A stretch of DNA of 43,939 bases from assembly GCA_964355375.1 (NCBI GenBank), contig CAYHFE010000005.1:1-43939 (forward strand). The letters are read 5' to 3'. Both the position numbers and the translations under genes were made by a program. Origin of the DNA: an uncultured Verrucomicrobiota bacterium. Its GTDB lineage: Bacteria; Verrucomicrobiota; Verrucomicrobiia; Limisphaerales; SIBE01. The notes below the pieces were generated by a model that ran no database searches, was not told the origin of the DNA, and saw nothing but the letters and a program-made list of their open reading frames with translations. Positions 28,023 through 32,627 of this stretch are shown here, one piece after another (the stretch's first letter is position 1; every line of letters starts with the position of its first letter).

Positions 28023-29357
28023 ATGACACCTCTGCCCGAACTCGCCACCAGAATCGTCCAACGCCTCCAAGGCGCGGGCTTTGTCGCCTTTTGGGTCGGA
28101 GGATGTGTTCGCGACGCTCTACTCGGACGCGTCCCCGACGACTACGACATCGCCACCTCGGCCACGCCTTCGGAGATTGAAGCGCTCTTTGTCCGAACCA
28201 TCCCGGTCGGAAGACAGTTTGGGGTGCTGTTGGTCATGGAAGAAGGTCGGCCTTTTCAAGTCGCGACGTTCCGAGCAGACGCCGACTACCACGACGGACG
28301 CCATCCCTCTCAGGTCACTTTTGGCAGTGCCCTGGCCGATGCCCAACGGCGCGATTTCACCGTCAACGGACTGTTTTATGATCCGGTCGCCGATCGCCTG
28401 CACGATTGGGTCGGTGGCGAGATCGATCTGAAGGCGAAAGTGCTCCGAACCATCGGTGCCCCGGCCGAACGATTTGCCGAAGACCATCTCCGATTGCTTC
28501 GGGCGGTCCGCTTTGCCGCCCAACTGGGCTTTTCCCTCGAGGATGCGACCCTATCCGCCTTGCGGGAGCACAGCGCGGACATCGGCACGGTCAGCGCGGA
28601 ACGGGTTCGCGATGAACTGCTCAAGCTCTTTCGCCCGCCTCACGCGGCCCGCGGGCTCAACCTCCTTCGGCTCAGCGGCCTGATGCCTCATGTCCTTCCC
28701 GAATTGGTCGCGACGATCGCGTGCGAGCAGTCGCCGGACTTTCATCCGGAAGGTTCGGTCTATAACCATATCGCCCGCATGCTGGATCAACTGCCGGCGG
28801 AGGCGCCGCCGTCGTTGCCTTGGACGGTCTTGCTTCATGACATCGCCAAGCCGCAGACGGCCTCTCGGGACGAAGCCACCGGACGAATTCATTTTTACGG
28901 CCACGAAAAGGTGGGCGCCGACGTCGCCGAGCGAGTCCTCCAACGCCTGCGGTTTCCGCGGAAGCAAATTGAGGAAATTGTGGCTTGCGTGAATCAACAC
29001 ATGCAATTCAAGGACGTGCCTCAAATGCGCCAAGCGACTTTGCGCCGACTCCTTCTGCGCCCGACATTCTCTCTGGAGCTAGAGTTGCACCGACTGGATT
29101 GCCTCGGATCCCACGGACGGCTCGATCACTACGATTTTCTCGTGCGACAGTCCGAGGAAATGGCTCGCCAGCCTGAACTCAAGCCGCCGTTGCTCACGGG
29201 TCATGACCTGATCGCCCTTGGGATGAAGCCAGGCCCAGCCCTGGGAGTGTTGCTCGCCGAAATTCGGGAAAAGCAGTTGCAGGGCGATCTGACCAACGGA
29301 CCGGATGCCCGGGCCTGGGCTCGACAAAGAATCGGCGGCGATCCGCCCCCAATCTGA
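28023..29357 (+). CDS. cca: CCA-adding tRNA nucleotidyltransferase / poly(A) polymerase family with HD-like domain
   Basis: VGGCVRD...DYDIAT, DAQRRDFTVN, EDHLRLLRAVRF, SAERVRDEL and LLHDIAKP motifs. Confidence 0.88.
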   Translation: MTPLPELATRIVQRLQGAGFVAFWVGGCVRDALLGRVPDDYDIATSATPSEIEALFVRTIPVGRQFGVLLVMEEGRPFQVATFRADADYHDGRHPSQVTFGSALADAQRRDFTVNGLFYDPVADRLHDWVGGEIDLKAKVLRTIGAPAERFAEDHLRLLRAVRFAAQLGFSLEDATLSALREHSADIGTVSAERVRDELLKLFRPPHAARGLNLLRLSGLMPHVLPELVATIACEQSPDFHPEGSVYNHIARMLDQLPAEAPPSLPWTVLLHDIAKPQTASRDEATGRIHFYGHEKVGADVAERVLQRLRFPRKQIEEIVACVNQHMQFKDVPQMRQATLRRLLLRPTFSLELELHRLDCLGSHGRLDHYDFLVRQSEEMARQPELKPPLLTGHDLIALGMKPGPALGVLLAEIREKQLQGDLTNGPDARAWARQRIGGDPPPI

Positions 29358-29374
29358 TCGGCGACGCCCCACTT

Positions 29375-29662
29375 TCATGAACCAGGGTGGGGCGAGACTC
29401 CGTCGAGCCCTGACTTTCCTGACCGCCAAGATTCCGGGGCTCGACGGCGTTTCGCCCCTCCGTGGAAACGAGTGCAGGATCTCAATGCGTGCGCGAAGCG
29501 GGTCGAAGCTTTCCATGAACTTGGGTGGGGTGAGACTCCGTCGAACCCTGATTGTTCTGTCGGTCCATATTCCAGGGCTCGACGGAGTCTCGCCCCACCG
29601 TTGGATGGGTTCATGGCCCCGATTCACGTCCAATCGTTGGAGGTGTTCCCTTCCCATGAATC
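29375..29662. repeat. Mosaic repeat cluster: two GGTGGGG...CCCCACC palindromes alternating with about 50-bp GGTTCATGG...CCATGAAC units
   Basis: Palindromes at 29386..29461 and 29524..29599; units at about 29470..29520 (degenerate) and 29608..29662. Confidence 0.8.
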
Positions 29663-29793
29663 CCCCATCCCTTTGTGGGATACCACTTCGCATGAAAATA
29701 ACGGGCATTGGTACACAACGACTTGCTCCTACTTTCGGGGTAACCGGAGCGTGGCTTGGTCGTCCGCGAACCAGCCGCGCTCACCCCAAATCC

Positions 29794-29809: not shown

Positions 29810-30009
29810 AGCATTTTCGCCATGGGAAGGTACGTTCACGACCATCTACCCCACGGTGTCCCCGAAACTGTTGTCGTAGGCCACAGGAACGAGTGGGACC
29901 GCTCTCTCTCGCCCAAGACGAGAACGAACGGCCCCATCCGGCTGAAGATGATGGCAGACACCACCGGGCGCACAGCCTCGGTCGAGAGAACCCGCCGAGA
30001 AGAACCAGG

Positions 30010-31320
30010 ATGAAACGGATCCACCACACGATTCGCACCCAAGCATTGGATGCAACCGATCGCCGATCGTCTGGCCGCAAGAATTGGCTCCTGCTAACCC
30101 TGTTCGCGATGACGGCAATTCTATTGGCGTTTTCACCCCCATTGAGGAGGCTGATCTCCACGACCACTGCGGGCTGGGCGATTAAGCCACCCTCCACCCC
30201 CATGGTTGCATCCAAGTCGGGTCCCCACCCGTGGGGGGATCTCGAGTCGGAAGTCCTCATGTTGGAAGCGCCCACCGAGTATCTTTCGGACCGCCGGTTT
30301 GTCGCGGCGAAGCTCGATTGGTTTCTGCCTCCGAGCGCTTTCCTCCGTTTCCGGGATCAACTCCCCTCGTATGACCTGACGGCTGAAGAGCGGGCCGTGC
30401 TGAGTGACGAATCCCGATGGAAAACCAATTCGAGCGGGTTCTATTTCGCACCCGCCCGGGAATTGCTCCTTGGCCTAAACGCTCACGCCCGTCAGCAGAT
30501 TCATTCCTTCCTGGGGCAATTCCGGGAAAACGTCTATCAGAATCTCCCCTTTAGATACCCTCAAGGGACCGCCGAGCCATGGCTTGCGGATAGCGGCCTC
30601 CAAGCGGAAACCCAAAACCTGGTGAAGCGTTGCCTTTACCAACGAGGTCCGACTCTTTGCTTCTCCGATATGGCCATCCTCGAGAACACGCCCGTCGAAG
30701 AGTACCGCCGCGTTTTGAAGTGCCTGACTCGAACCCGAACCGTCTTCCTGCAACTGCGAGTGACGCCTTTATCGGACGTGAACGCTCTCGTGCAATACTG
30801 GGGCAAGAAGGAAACCACCCGACGAATTCGGCCGCTCTTGGAGTCTCTGGCCAAAACCCCTGATGGCGGCACGCTCGATGTGACGCATCTCCTTCCAGCC
30901 TTTGCTCGAGAACGGCTTCTCAGTTTTCCGGATAGCTCCGACCGTCGTGAATGTTCCCTCCAGAACTGCCTTTGGACCGCATTGAATTTCTTCAATGACC
31001 CGCCCGATGATCGATTCGCCGATGTCAATTACGCCAAGGAATTCCTGCGACGTGAATATGATCTTTATCAAGGCGAACCAACCTACGGTGATTTGGTGGC
31101 ACTGAAAAACTCACGGGGCGACCTGGTGCATTGGTGTGTTTATATCGCCGCCGACGTCGTTTTCACAAAGAACGGAGGGCACGTGTTGCAGCCTTGGGTT
31201 CTGATGTCTCTGTCCGACGTGGTAGCCCAGTATGGCTTGGACGAACCGGTGAAGGTCGTGATCTTCCGTGGCAAGAGCTGGAACATGACGGCGGTAAGTC
31301 GCGCTGCGCCCGATGGCTGA
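30010..31320 (+). CDS. Membrane-anchored hypothetical protein with a C-terminal papain/NlpC-P60-like Cys-His motif set
   Basis: N-terminal TM (WLLLTLFAMTAILLAFS); QNCLWTALNFF ... GDLVAL ... VHWCVYIA ... FTKNG. Confidence 0.7.
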   Translation: MKRIHHTIRTQALDATDRRSSGRKNWLLLTLFAMTAILLAFSPPLRRLISTTTAGWAIKPPSTPMVASKSGPHPWGDLESEVLMLEAPTEYLSDRRFVAAKLDWFLPPSAFLRFRDQLPSYDLTAEERAVLSDESRWKTNSSGFYFAPARELLLGLNAHARQQIHSFLGQFRENVYQNLPFRYPQGTAEPWLADSGLQAETQNLVKRCLYQRGPTLCFSDMAILENTPVEEYRRVLKCLTRTRTVFLQLRVTPLSDVNALVQYWGKKETTRRIRPLLESLAKTPDGGTLDVTHLLPAFARERLLSFPDSSDRRECSLQNCLWTALNFFNDPPDDRFADVNYAKEFLRREYDLYQGEPTYGDLVALKNSRGDLVHWCVYIAADVVFTKNGGHVLQPWVLMSLSDVVAQYGLDEPVKVVIFRGKSWNMTAVSRAAPDG

Positions 31321-31450
31321 CCTTTCGAACCCTCTCGTGTCGTTCGACGGCTGACGTCTTCCTCGCCAGTTGAGAGATCAACCGAGAGCTCGCGGGAGTT
31401 GACAGCGCATCGGATTGACGGGACCCTCTCGCTCTGAACTGTTGGATCGT

Positions 31451-31621
31451 ATGGAATTTGTCTATCTCGCGGCCGTCGTCGTGGTGTGGTATGCCCTGCA
31501 AAAGTGGATCCTGCCCAAATTGGGCTTTCGGACCTGACTATCCGGTCAATGCTCGGTCGAGCAGCCCAAAACCAAGTCCGAAACAGACAAAGCAGAGGTT
31601 TCCGAAGAGACGCCCAAGTAG
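31451..31621 (+). CDS. Small single-TM candidate selenoprotein (56 aa, Sec29, U-x4-C)
   Basis: MEFVYLAAVVVVWYALQKWILPKLGFRT-U-LSGQCSVEQPKTKSETDKAEVSEETPK. The in-frame TGA at 31535-31537 is followed by a SECIS-like hairpin, and the frame stays open to TAG at 31619-31621. Confidence 0.7.
31544..31566 (+). promoter_or_regulatory. Bacterial SECIS-like hairpin
   Basis: GGU-CAA-UGCUC-GGUC-GAGCA-GCC: a 5-bp upper stem with a GGUC apical loop at +21..+24 from the U of UGA. Confidence 0.65.
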
Positions 31622-31661
31622 ATTTCTCCTTTCGTGTCCCGCCGCCCGCTGAGCGGAGCTA

Positions 31662-32627
31662 TCACTTGGGGAGCCACTTCTCCCAGTTCTTCGCGAAGGC
31701 CTCCACATTTTGTTTCGTCACCGCCGTCAACGGCGTCGTGTCCATGAGATCAGACGGGCTCTTCTTCAAGTGCAATTTATTGATGAGGTGCTGCACCGAA
31801 CGGTAGCCGTAGCCGTACACATCTTGAGACAACAACATCTGCACATGCCCGCTGCGGACGTAGGGCAACTGTTGGGGTAAGGCGTCCACGGAGACACATT
31901 TGATCGTGCCCGGAGTCCATTTCAACGCGTTGTCGGTAAAGAGCGGCCAGCCGCCCAGCAATCCCCAACCGCTGATGTCGGGATTGGCCTGCATGACTTG
32001 CTCGATTCTGGCAACCGCGTCCTGGGGCGTTTCTTTGTGGTAATAAATATCGCGCAAGATGATTTCCGGATACTTCTTCGCCGCCGCCCGAAATCCCGCC
32101 GCCCGCTGCTGCAAGTTGGACGCGTTCGGATTGCCATCAATCGCGGCCACCACGCCTTTGCCGTTCATCAGCTTGGCCAACGCCTCCAAAGTCTGCGCAC
32201 CGCATTGGTAGTCATCAATGCCCAAGGCGACAAAACGCCGGCTCTTGGCCGCGTCTCCCGAGAACGTGACCACGGGGACGCCCTGCTTCACCGCTTTGTC
32301 AATGGCGTCGGTCAGCTTGTTGGCGTCCGAGCAGCTCACGATGATCCCATCCGTCCCGCCGAGGAGAAGTTGTTCGATAAACTCGGCCTGCTTTTGCGCG
32401 TCTTCCTCATTGGGAGTGCGCCAATCGATCTTGATTTTGATGCCCAACTGCGCGCCGAGCTCCCGGGCCGCGTCGTTGGCCCCGGCGTGGGCCGCCTCAA
32501 AAAACGGGTTCCCCTGCGACTTGGCCACCAGGCCGAGGGTGTAGCTCTTCTGGGTCTGGGCGGAGCGGGCGGAGACGACGGTGAAGAGCAAGGCCAAGCT
32601 GGAACAAATTCGGACCACGGTGATCAT
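31662..32627 (-). CDS. Periplasmic sugar-binding protein (Peripla_BP_4), with no adjacent transporter
   Basis: Signal peptide; AKSQGNPFF, IDKAVKQGVPVVTF, LGIDDY and VSVDALP motifs. Confidence 0.88.
   Translation of the reverse strand: MITVVRICSSLALLFTVVSARSAQTQKSYTLGLVAKSQGNPFFEAAHAGANDAARELGAQLGIKIKIDWRTPNEEDAQKQAEFIEQLLLGGTDGIIVSCSDANKLTDAIDKAVKQGVPVVTFSGDAAKSRRFVALGIDDYQCGAQTLEALAKLMNGKGVVAAIDGNPNASNLQQRAAGFRAAAKKYPEIILRDIYYHKETPQDAVARIEQVMQANPDISGWGLLGGWPLFTDNALKWTPGTIKCVSVDALPQQLPYVRSGHVQMLLSQDVYGYGYRSVQHLINKLHLKKSPSDLMDTTPLTAVTKQNVEAFAKNWEKWLPK

Follow-up and report, generated by a model that had tools for sequence, protein, structure and literature searches.

Does the short gap between two convergent genes on a verrucomicrobial contig hold a gene of its own, and is the UGA codon that interrupts it read as selenocysteine (Sec)? 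The question is raised by a 43,939-nucleotide (nt) stretch of contig CAYHFE010000005.1 (assembly GCA_964355375.1, from an uncultured Verrucomicrobiota bacterium of the order Limisphaerales, family SIBE01; hereafter the window), for which the original prediction, made from the letters alone, proposed a small membrane-anchored selenoprotein at 31451-31621. We conclude, with a probability of about 0.87, that a functional gene at 31451-31621 encodes a membrane-anchored selenoprotein of 56 residues, with UGA-29 decoded as Sec. The proposed reading of the UGA has held up on several counts: the Sec machinery is present in the same genome, homologues carry TGA or Cys in the column concerned, the hairpin behind the UGA is conserved, and its closing base pair covaries.

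Read directly from the sequence, an in-frame TGA (31535-31537) lies between an ATG (31451-31453) and a TAG (31619-31621) on the + strand, and read-through gives MEFVYLAAVVVVWYALQKWILPKLGFRT-U-LSGQCSVEQPKTKSETDKAEVSEETPK, a product of 56 residues in which U29 and C34 form a U-x4-C pair. The product is laid out as Met, a transmembrane helix, WILPKLGFRT, the UGA, LSGQCSVEQ and a tail; the open reading frame (ORF), the TGA at 31535, the hydrophobic helix and the charged tail that had been described all proved exact on re-reading. The small ORF occupies a 340-nt gap, bounded upstream by a 671-codon ORF with a TGA stop at 31320 and downstream by a convergent periplasmic-binding-protein gene on the minus strand (31662-32627). 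Its features are given below, with the basis of each in brackets; SECIS stands for selenocysteine insertion sequence and pLDDT for predicted local distance difference test.

31451..31621, + strand: small selenoprotein gene (probable), 56 codons, one of them the UGA taken as Sec, plus the TAG stop (sequence, homologues)
31454..31519, + strand: predicted single transmembrane helix, residues 2-23, EFVYLAAVVVVWYALQKWILPK (AlphaFold2, 71-sequence alignment)
31523..31552, + strand: juxtamembrane motif G25-F-R-T28-U29-L-S-G-Q-C34, in the family G-x2-T-[U/C]-x4-C (71-sequence conservation)
31535..31537, + strand: in-frame UGA, probably read as Sec, residue 29 (TGA or Cys in the homologue column)
31549..31564, + strand: putative SECIS hairpin, UGCUC/GGUC loop/GAGCA, coinciding with codons C34-S-V-E-Q38 (13-mer invariance, closing-pair covariation)
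31544..31566, + strand: lower stem GGU...GCC, specific to the window copy (single-sequence fold)
31565..31618, + strand: hydrophilic C-terminal tail, probably disordered, PKTKSETDKAEVSEETPK (pLDDT 54-62, coil)
31348..31611, unstranded: 264-nt metatranscriptome contig of run X4, zero mismatches (RNA library)

Homologues, Sec machinery and translation past the UGA

First of all, 401 genomes of the order were searched in six frames. Sixteen genomes besides the host matched at E ≤ 1e-4, 14 with exactly one TGA inside and two without a stop, and two weaker matches (3.6e-4 and 0.002) are also true members. At E ≤ 0.002 the order therefore holds 15 TGA forms, the window copy included, and four Cys forms, and none of these homologues has TAA or TAG at position 29; six weak matches at E > 0.01 were inspected and set aside as chance. 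The original prediction had looked to homologues with TGA or Cys aligned at position 29, and the sample supplies 14 further TGA forms and four Cys forms of this kind. The 15 TGA forms share M-D-x-L-Y-L-I-G-x4-W-F-V-L-x-K-W-V-L-P-[KR]-[FLM]-G-[VIFL]-x-T-U-[MLA]-[ST]-x-x-C-S-V-E-[QR], and behind it comes a hydrophilic tail that varies. Cys takes the U position in the four Cys forms (RTCMSCCCKLEQ and LTACGRACC), and extra Cys residues occur in some Cys forms (CMSCCC, CGRACC). A profile search at the level of the phylum (401 genomes, only two of them from the window's order) gave two weak partial matches besides the host genome, and in a word-indexed protein search no candidate had sufficient 5-residue words in common with the read-through protein.

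Searched exhaustively with HMMER, a library of 1.84 billion representative proteins yielded 71 at E ≤ 1e-3, of which 60 were read. Cys homologues (T-C-M-S-G-x-C) predominate among these: 52 of the 60, with lengths of 44-109 residues, carry Cys at the site within ...L-P-x2-G-[IV]-P-T-C-M-S-G-x-C..., which is what the proposed homology search with U replaced by C was meant to find. Two others (P0021, P0048) are gene calls ending after ...GIRT, and one is unrelated. At the Sec/Cys column three proteins have W (P0024, P0057, P0062), which may be a TGA rendered as Trp by an automatic pipeline, and P0011 and P0016 have R in one and L in the other. In alignments A2 and A3 the third residue past the first Cys is Gly in 90% or more of Cys forms; TGA forms show D, R, K or G in that place. 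Ten clusters of related proteins that were looked up are nameless or called 'hypothetical protein', and the ESM Atlas holds only a nameless 'hypothetical protein' cluster (score 0.84).

Second, a DNA pattern was scanned against the contigs of genome_contigs: CCN NNN NTN GGN NTN N6 TGA N(12-15) TGCTCGGTCGAGC, applied as reverse complement. It has at least 120 matches at at least 119 loci, against about 0.3 expected by chance for 22 specified bases, 596 Gb, both strands, four gap lengths and equal base frequencies. All 120 matches listed are in frame, with a hydrophobic helix ahead of the motif and a hydrophilic tail behind it; UGA and 13-mer are separated by 12 nt in 110 of them and by 15 nt in the other 10, never by 13 or 14 nt. 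Record titles, available for 80 of the loci, bear a Cyanobacteria, Melainabacteria or Obscuribacter(ales) label in 41 (one Drouetiella included), Verrucomicrobiota in 24, Planctomycetota in five and Armatimonadota in four; the other six are labelled Calditrichaeota, Riflebacteria, a 'Proteobacteria' metagenome-assembled genome (MAG), a 'Flavobacterium psychrophilum' MAG and two unclassified bacteria. On the 'F. psychrophilum' contig (L064, position 4396) the gene is near-identical to Obscuribacteraceae copies (L069, L072, L104), and to judge from this likeness the label or binning looks wrong. Several MAGs have two to three copies of the family gene, and identical proteins occur in loci of the order and in Verrucomicrobia-labelled records (e.g. 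L033 = L063, L035 = L095), which points to that phylum for the window's order.

Third, the host can be expected to decode Sec. Its assembly (8.2 Mb, 956 contigs, 94% complete) contains selA (491 bits), selB (277 bits), selD and tRNA-Sec (68.4 bits against a cut-off of 47; ARAGORN anticodon TCA), each above its curated cut-off, so that the machinery which the original prediction wanted confirmed in the same genome is there in full. The host selD itself has one in-frame TGA, as in Sec-type SelD, and lies directly beside selA on the same strand (contig C50:360-2775; L016, L018). Across the order, selA is found in all 15 genomes with a TGA form, which are distributed over eight families, compared with 140 of 401 genomes overall, and in two of the four Cys-form genomes; relatives are not independent, hence no P value is attached to these counts. 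TGA also serves as an ordinary stop. It ends 31 of the 45 open frames of at least 250 codons in the window, the gene just upstream among them, and is the true stop of 42 of the 118 complete family genes listed, 20-50 codons past the Sec UGA; recoding would thus be position-specific.

These counts bear on the idea that the UGA is read as Trp or another standard residue, through codon reassignment or leaky termination. The three database proteins with W at the site speak for it, as does the UGA-to-Trp reassignment that the abstract of PMC13462651 mentions for some Verrucomicrobiota. It has to contend, however, with the ordinary use of TGA as a stop in the window and in the family, with Cys as the aligned residue of the homologues, with a GGUC-loop SECIS at the canonical distance and with the linkage to selA, and we regard it as extremely improbable. 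Selenium insertion at residue 29 itself we infer from this same set of sequence comparisons.

Finally, three properties of the DNA indicate indirectly that translation continues beyond the UGA, namely an excess of third-position changes, an open frame and spacers that are in-frame only. Between 19 independent close pairs, differences in the tail past the hairpin fall 46/36/106 on codon positions 1/2/3, and those in the 25 codons before the UGA fall 39/14/68. Past the UGA, all 118 complete cases listed have an open frame of 16 codons or more (median 30.5); the alternative frames close within 12 codons in 33 of 115 (+1) and 41 of 116 (+2). The tails of the family are rich in K, P, E and S.

If the UGA were instead an ordinary stop, the locus would encode a hydrophobic micropeptide of 28 residues (or 40 from a TTG at 31415), and the hairpin would be a terminator or another RNA element. 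Gene callers do end P0021 and P0048 in just this way, and the hairpin of the window, folded as a single sequence, is not significant. On the other hand, Cys replaces the UGA in homologues and conservation runs across the site, the tail has codon periodicity behind spacers that keep the frame and a frame that remains open in every complete case listed, the TGA forms of the order occur only in selA-positive genomes, and no T-run follows the hairpin, the sole terminator-like site being on the other strand. Termination at the UGA is therefore very improbable.

RNA data give a hint of transcription, not proof. The X4 contig begins past the upstream stop (31320) and runs across both UGA and hairpin. 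Two further RNA libraries gave contigs X5 (31504-31654) and X7 (31571-31831), neither of which can be assigned to the small gene; X7 perhaps represents the 3' end of the transcript of the convergent gene. That RNA contigs are absent over 30800-31347 carries no weight. The terminator-like site, a hairpin plus T-run on the minus strand at 31588-31576, lies within the tail-coding part of the small ORF, some 75 nt beyond the point where the convergent binding-protein gene stops, and X7 ends at this site; the two convergent transcripts may overlap. A promoter scan of 31250-31750 found none.

A short hairpin within the reading frame

Twelve nt past the UGA the sequence forms the hairpin UGCUC (31550-31554), GGUC (31555-31558), GAGCA (31559-31563), and the minimum-free-energy fold adds a lower stem GGU/GCC (31544-46 paired with 31564-66). 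Both the hairpin and its lower stem are as originally described, and the fold bears them out. With the U of UGA as +1, coordinates place GGUC at +21..+24, as had been stated, and the position cited for comparison, +22..+25 in Escherichia coli fdhF, is borne out by the K-12 record, in which the TGA is codon 140.

What sets the element apart is its constancy. The 13-mer TGCTCGGTCGAGC is identical in 15 of 15 TGA forms found by protein search, synonymous positions included: all read TGC TCG GTC GAG C in their DNA without one synonymous change, and the adjacent codons vary at third positions. The four Cys forms of the order lack the 13-mer. Next to it, a closing pair joins the base that precedes TGC to the second base beyond GAGC; both are third codon positions, and the two covary. 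The pair is present in 108 of 115 distinct sequences (C-G 83, U-A 16, G-C 4, A-U 2, G-U/U-G 3), as against 10-22 of 115 in slid controls. Counted over 68 distinct hairpins (C-G 42, U-A 11, G-C 4, A-U 2, G-U/U-G 3, unpaired 6), there are 19 double-sided changes versus 3.7 expected, and none of 500 shuffles reaches the observed score. The next outward pair is formed in only 44 of 115, no better than slid controls, and the lower stem is not conserved in the family. The element is thus a 6-bp stem with a GGUC tetraloop, and between UGA and stem lie 11 nt in 105 of the 115 distinct sequences and 14 nt in the remaining 10.

The hairpin also accounts for a stretch of protein sequence. An in-frame element of this kind fixes UGC-UCG-GUC-GAG-CAR, so that TGA forms read C-S-V-E-Q; Cys forms vary beyond their second Cys, this Cys itself being invariant in both kinds. 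'SVEQ' is thus a by-product of the SECIS, imposed by the RNA and not by protein function. The identity of 13 nt across several phylum labels may reflect constraint by SelB alone or gene transfer as well.

Invariance at the nucleotide level across these labels could also suggest that the peptide is functionless and that what is conserved acts as RNA, non-coding or regulatory, or as a leader that senses selenium for a gene downstream. Cys forms, however, keep W-x2-L-x2-W-x-L-P-x2-G-x2-T-C-x4-C without the hairpin sequence, no gene downstream is kept from lineage to lineage, and the next gene of the window is convergent; we give this possibility next to no credence. An Rfam scan over 31300-31700 found no SECIS or other family, apart from one sub-threshold algC chance match on the minus strand.

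Several observations weigh against the conclusion that the locus is a functional selenoprotein gene. Folded on its own, the hairpin of the window is unremarkable (z = -1.46, with 19 of 200 shuffles folding equally well), and the case thus rests on comparison with other sequences. In the window copy the sixth pair (31549/31564) is an A.G mismatch, which leaves five pairs. The matches of the DNA pattern were selected by the 13-mer and are uninformative on hairpin variation in the wider family. The RNA contigs are strandless, DNA carry-over is possible, and the convergent gene may account for two of the three. Twelve other genomes of the window's own family gave chance matches only in six-frame search (four of eight inspected), although selA is present in nine of the twelve, all without a homologue; the distribution is therefore patchy, and about 125 selA-positive genomes of the order are likewise without a detected copy. 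As regards function, the window and 18 other loci of the order have unrelated, mostly housekeeping neighbours, and the redox and sulfur gene context set out below is confined to Obscuribacterales-type loci and a few others. None of the findings that the original prediction named as refuting was made: Sec genes are present in the host, no homologue at E ≤ 0.002 has TAA or TAG at the site, and the motif and hairpin are conserved beyond it.

Membrane anchor, gene neighbourhood and possible role

AlphaFold2, run with 71 aligned sequences, predicts one confident helix at residues 2-23 (with a mean pLDDT of 94 over residues 1-10 and of 88 over 11-20) and coil for the rest (pLDDT 54-68). In the same alignment P22, C/U29 and C34 never vary, G25 and T28 are conserved at 90% or more, and W13, L16, W19 and L21 are near-invariant; the placing of a U-x4-C pair directly after the membrane anchor, part of the original prediction, agrees with the invariance of the second Cys. 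Only one to three residues, usually acidic, precede the helix, and K and R come after it. Under the positive-inside rule basic residues lie on the cytoplasmic side, which favours N-out with the motif in the cytoplasm. From this charge pattern we consider a topology of N-out/C-in, with the Sec-x4-Cys pair at the cytoplasmic face, somewhat better than an even bet. A complex prediction with natural Cys forms only gave a self-association score of 0.04 against a mark of 0.42, which speaks neither for nor against binding.

Clues to a role come from the genes around 120 distinct TGA-form loci, which were clustered, with representatives scanned against Pfam and NCBIfam. Obscuribacterales-type loci present a recurrent unit of a divergent ArsR/SmtB regulator, a rhodanese, a protein with Pyr_redox_2, dimerisation and rhodanese domains, the small gene and an alpha/beta hydrolase. 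The regulator of this unit has weak, sub-threshold scores to the BigR and TsoR models, and the Pyr_redox_2-rhodanese protein matches a coenzyme A (CoA)-disulfide-reductase model at 1e-142, below the equivalog cut-off. Among the 120 loci listed, a rhodanese and/or reductase-rhodanese lies within 3 kb in 33, and in 21 of those 33 a long Pyr_redox_2-rhodanese ORF is upstream on the same strand. An ArsR/SmtB regulator is within 3 kb in 13, ArsA, ArsC-like or Acr3 within 3 kb in 12, DsbD_N within 3 kb in three, and a thioredoxin within 1.4 kb upstream in five, in two of these immediately ahead of the small gene on its strand. Downstream, the loci surveyed have no gene in common from one lineage to another. 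One Melainabacteria contig (L120) has two copies of the small gene (2249 and 5187), 2.9 kb apart, flanking ORFs for ArsC-like (LMWPc), ArsI/CadI, ArsR and an ArsR-rhodanese fusion. In an Obscuribacteraceae MAG (L072:1922-6122) a complete ArsR-ArsC-Acr3-ArsD-ArsA operon directly adjoins the unit of hydrolase, small selenoprotein and reductase-rhodanese.

A rhodanese and a CoA-persulfide-type reductase under an ArsR-family sensor make up the pattern of operons for reactive-sulfur detoxification, and this pattern favours a selenol/thiol pair that cycles or carries sulfane sulfur. By this analogy the pair at the membrane surface may cycle as a selenenylsulfide or act as a carrier of bound sulfur, a possibility to which we assign a little less than even odds. 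A redox or metal-binding role for U-x4-C, as the original prediction had it, is likewise what we infer from the motif.

The same neighbourhoods lend themselves to another role, in which Sec decoding is kept and the protein is a membrane-tethered chaperone or sensor, with U-x4-C as its ligand site for thiophilic metalloids or metals such as As(III), Sb(III), Hg or Cu(I). Arsenic-resistance genes and ArsR/SmtB regulators occur near the small gene in the 12 and 13 loci counted above, the complete ars operon of L072 adjoins it, the C-C-S-T-G-I-C of the L072 ArsD and the C-M-S-G-x-C of Cys forms both fit C-x-[ST]-G-x-C, and the clusters CMSCCC and CGRACC of some Cys forms bring in extra Cys residues. 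Sec-containing proteins for metal handling, putative mercuric transport and metal-binding proteins among them, are tabulated in PMC13188914. The profile comparison with ArsD, however, gives a probability of 2%, ars genes are mostly on the opposite strand whereas the same-strand genes immediately upstream encode rhodanese or reductase, and most loci, that of the window included, have no metal-resistance genes nearby. We judge a metal site, the chief rival, to be unlikely by itself; that the protein has a selenol/thiol site for one or other of these chemistries (sulfane sulfur, redox or metalloid) is likely.

Returning to the selenol/thiol pair, a mechanism may be sketched as follows. The N-terminal helix (residues 2-23) would anchor the protein in the membrane, with G-x2-T-Sec-x4-Cys directly after it and then a short, charged, disordered tail. 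UGA-29 would be decoded as Sec by the host's own SelA, SelB, SelD and tRNA-Sec, SelB being recruited by a minimal SECIS that consists of a 6-bp stem in the family (five in the window) and GGUC, 11 nt past the UGA. The Sec/Cys pair would then cycle as a selenenylsulfide or hold sulfur, served by soluble reductases or sulfurtransferases.

A bolder and rather doubtful version can be put forward tentatively. The family would be the first bacterial family of single-pass membrane mini-selenoproteins, a functional counterpart of SELENOK and SELENOS. Its members would be membrane-tethered Sec-x4-Cys acceptors in a pathway of reactive sulfur (persulfide or polysulfide), or possibly in one that handles selenium, and would be recycled by the rhodanese and the CoA-disulfide/persulfide reductase, with an ArsR/BigR-type sensor in control. 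The 16-nt SECIS of the family, identical across at least four phylum labels, might be a near-universal minimal SelB-binding element housed in the C-S-V-E-Q codons.

Two observations concern the long ORF upstream of the small gene. Its C-terminal 455 residues (29951-31317) have no Pfam match at E ≤ 1e-5, and at 29300-29700 the word GGxRLRRxL...IPGLDGVSP appears twice in translations of ORFs in overlapping frames, which suggests a direct DNA repeat at the start of this ORF.

Significance and relation to known systems

Inventories of selenoproteins rely on gene calls and known domains, and a gene split by a UGA evades both. Here the UGA divides a gene of 56 residues into halves of 28 and 27 codons, which is why it escapes gene calls and domain searches. 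The family adds a selenoprotein to lineages little studied for selenium: Verrucomicrobiota, the non-photosynthetic Cyanobacteriota (Obscuribacterales), Planctomycetota and Armatimonadota. A natural SECIS of 16 nt, 13 of them invariant, laid over five codons provides a compact system in which to study SelB recognition and the constraints shared between RNA and protein, and the hairpin could serve as a short tag for Sec insertion. The DNA pattern, for which 120 of the 120 matches listed are true members, offers annotation pipelines an immediate handle. If the association with rhodanese, CoA-disulfide reductase and ArsR proves functional, it would tie the use of selenium to reactive-sulfur or metalloid stress at the membrane.

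How does the family relate to those already known? Scanned against Pfam-A and NCBIfam, the protein of the window has no family at E ≤ 10, and for 19 members and 30 Cys forms (NCBIfam release 20.0) the best E values are 0.005-0.05, all far below the cut-offs. None of the 119 selenoprotein families and subfamilies in Table 1 of a 2026 review (PMC13188914) offers a fitting row, so that the remark in the original prediction that this is not a named selenoprotein family agrees with the models and with that table. Searches of the selenoprotein literature, PMC4807772 and PMC12013277 included, brought up no account of the family; supplementary tables could list a candidate. This is a new bacterial selenoprotein family, very small, with a membrane anchor and a SECIS unusually invariant over five codons, and no description of it was found.

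Several known systems share single traits with it. The closest motif in the table of PMC13188914 belongs to TsoA (NF045695, named there for its motif LULAxC), whose family has 144 positions and which comes from an operon of three selenoproteins. Like the small family, TsoA is a bacterial selenoprotein with no assigned function, a short U...C motif and ArsR/SmtB-type regulators nearby, and some neighbours here score weakly to TsoR; its pair is U-x3-C whereas that of the small family is U-x4-C. As an identity TsoA was rejected, its model being silent in the host genome at E ≤ 10. ArsD (NF033727) has the local C-x-[ST]-G-x-C in common, a likeness limited to six residues; it is a soluble thioredoxin-fold protein in contrast to the membrane-anchored family, and homology was dismissed at an hhalign probability of 2.2%, with the alignment on the C-terminal Cys cluster and not on the N-terminal site.

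Membrane proteins provide further parallels. DUF2892 (PF11127, the YgaP-like transmembrane domain) is often found with rhodaneses and ArsR/BigR-type regulators. Its members resemble the family as small membrane proteins with a conserved Cys and Pro, then L-G-[VI] near the membrane edge, but have two helices instead of one; hhalign gives 9.4%, the model matches host contig C248 and not the window, and homology was rejected. FeoB-associated Cys-rich membrane proteins have Cys ligands close to a helix, and the Sec-containing 'putative mercuric transport protein' (PF02411) is tabulated with the motif C/SxxU (PMC13188914). Both are like the family in being embedded in or anchored to the membrane with Cys or Sec ligands near a helix, and differ from it in their motifs, with no Pfam match for the 49 family members scanned.

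In architecture, eukaryotic proteins offer a parallel. SELENOK and SELENOS are small single-pass membrane proteins with one Sec, a disordered hydrophilic tail and no folded catalytic domain, and in SELENOS the Sec is paired with a nearby Cys. The bacterial family is also small and single-pass, with one Sec and a disordered tail. SELENOK and SELENOS, on the other hand, carry their Sec at or near the C-terminus and depend on a eukaryotic SECIS in the 3' untranslated region, whereas in the bacterial family the Sec comes directly after the helix; Pfam-A scans of the 19 members and 30 Cys forms gave no family match and thus no relation in sequence.

The recoding mechanism itself is canonical, and for it E. 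coli fdhF is the system to compare. Both have an in-frame hairpin right after the UGA with a GGUC apical tetraloop, starting at +15 after 11 nt, and the host genome has selA, selB, selD and tRNA-Sec. The description of the hairpin as fdhF-like thus stands for its tetraloop, position and +15 start and fails for the bulged U of fdhF, which is missing: the family stem is a plain, continuous one of 6 bp (five in the window), and without the bulge the loop comes one nt earlier, at +21 versus +22. The family also differs from fdhF in having no conserved lower stem, and in 13 nt that are identical across several phylum labels.

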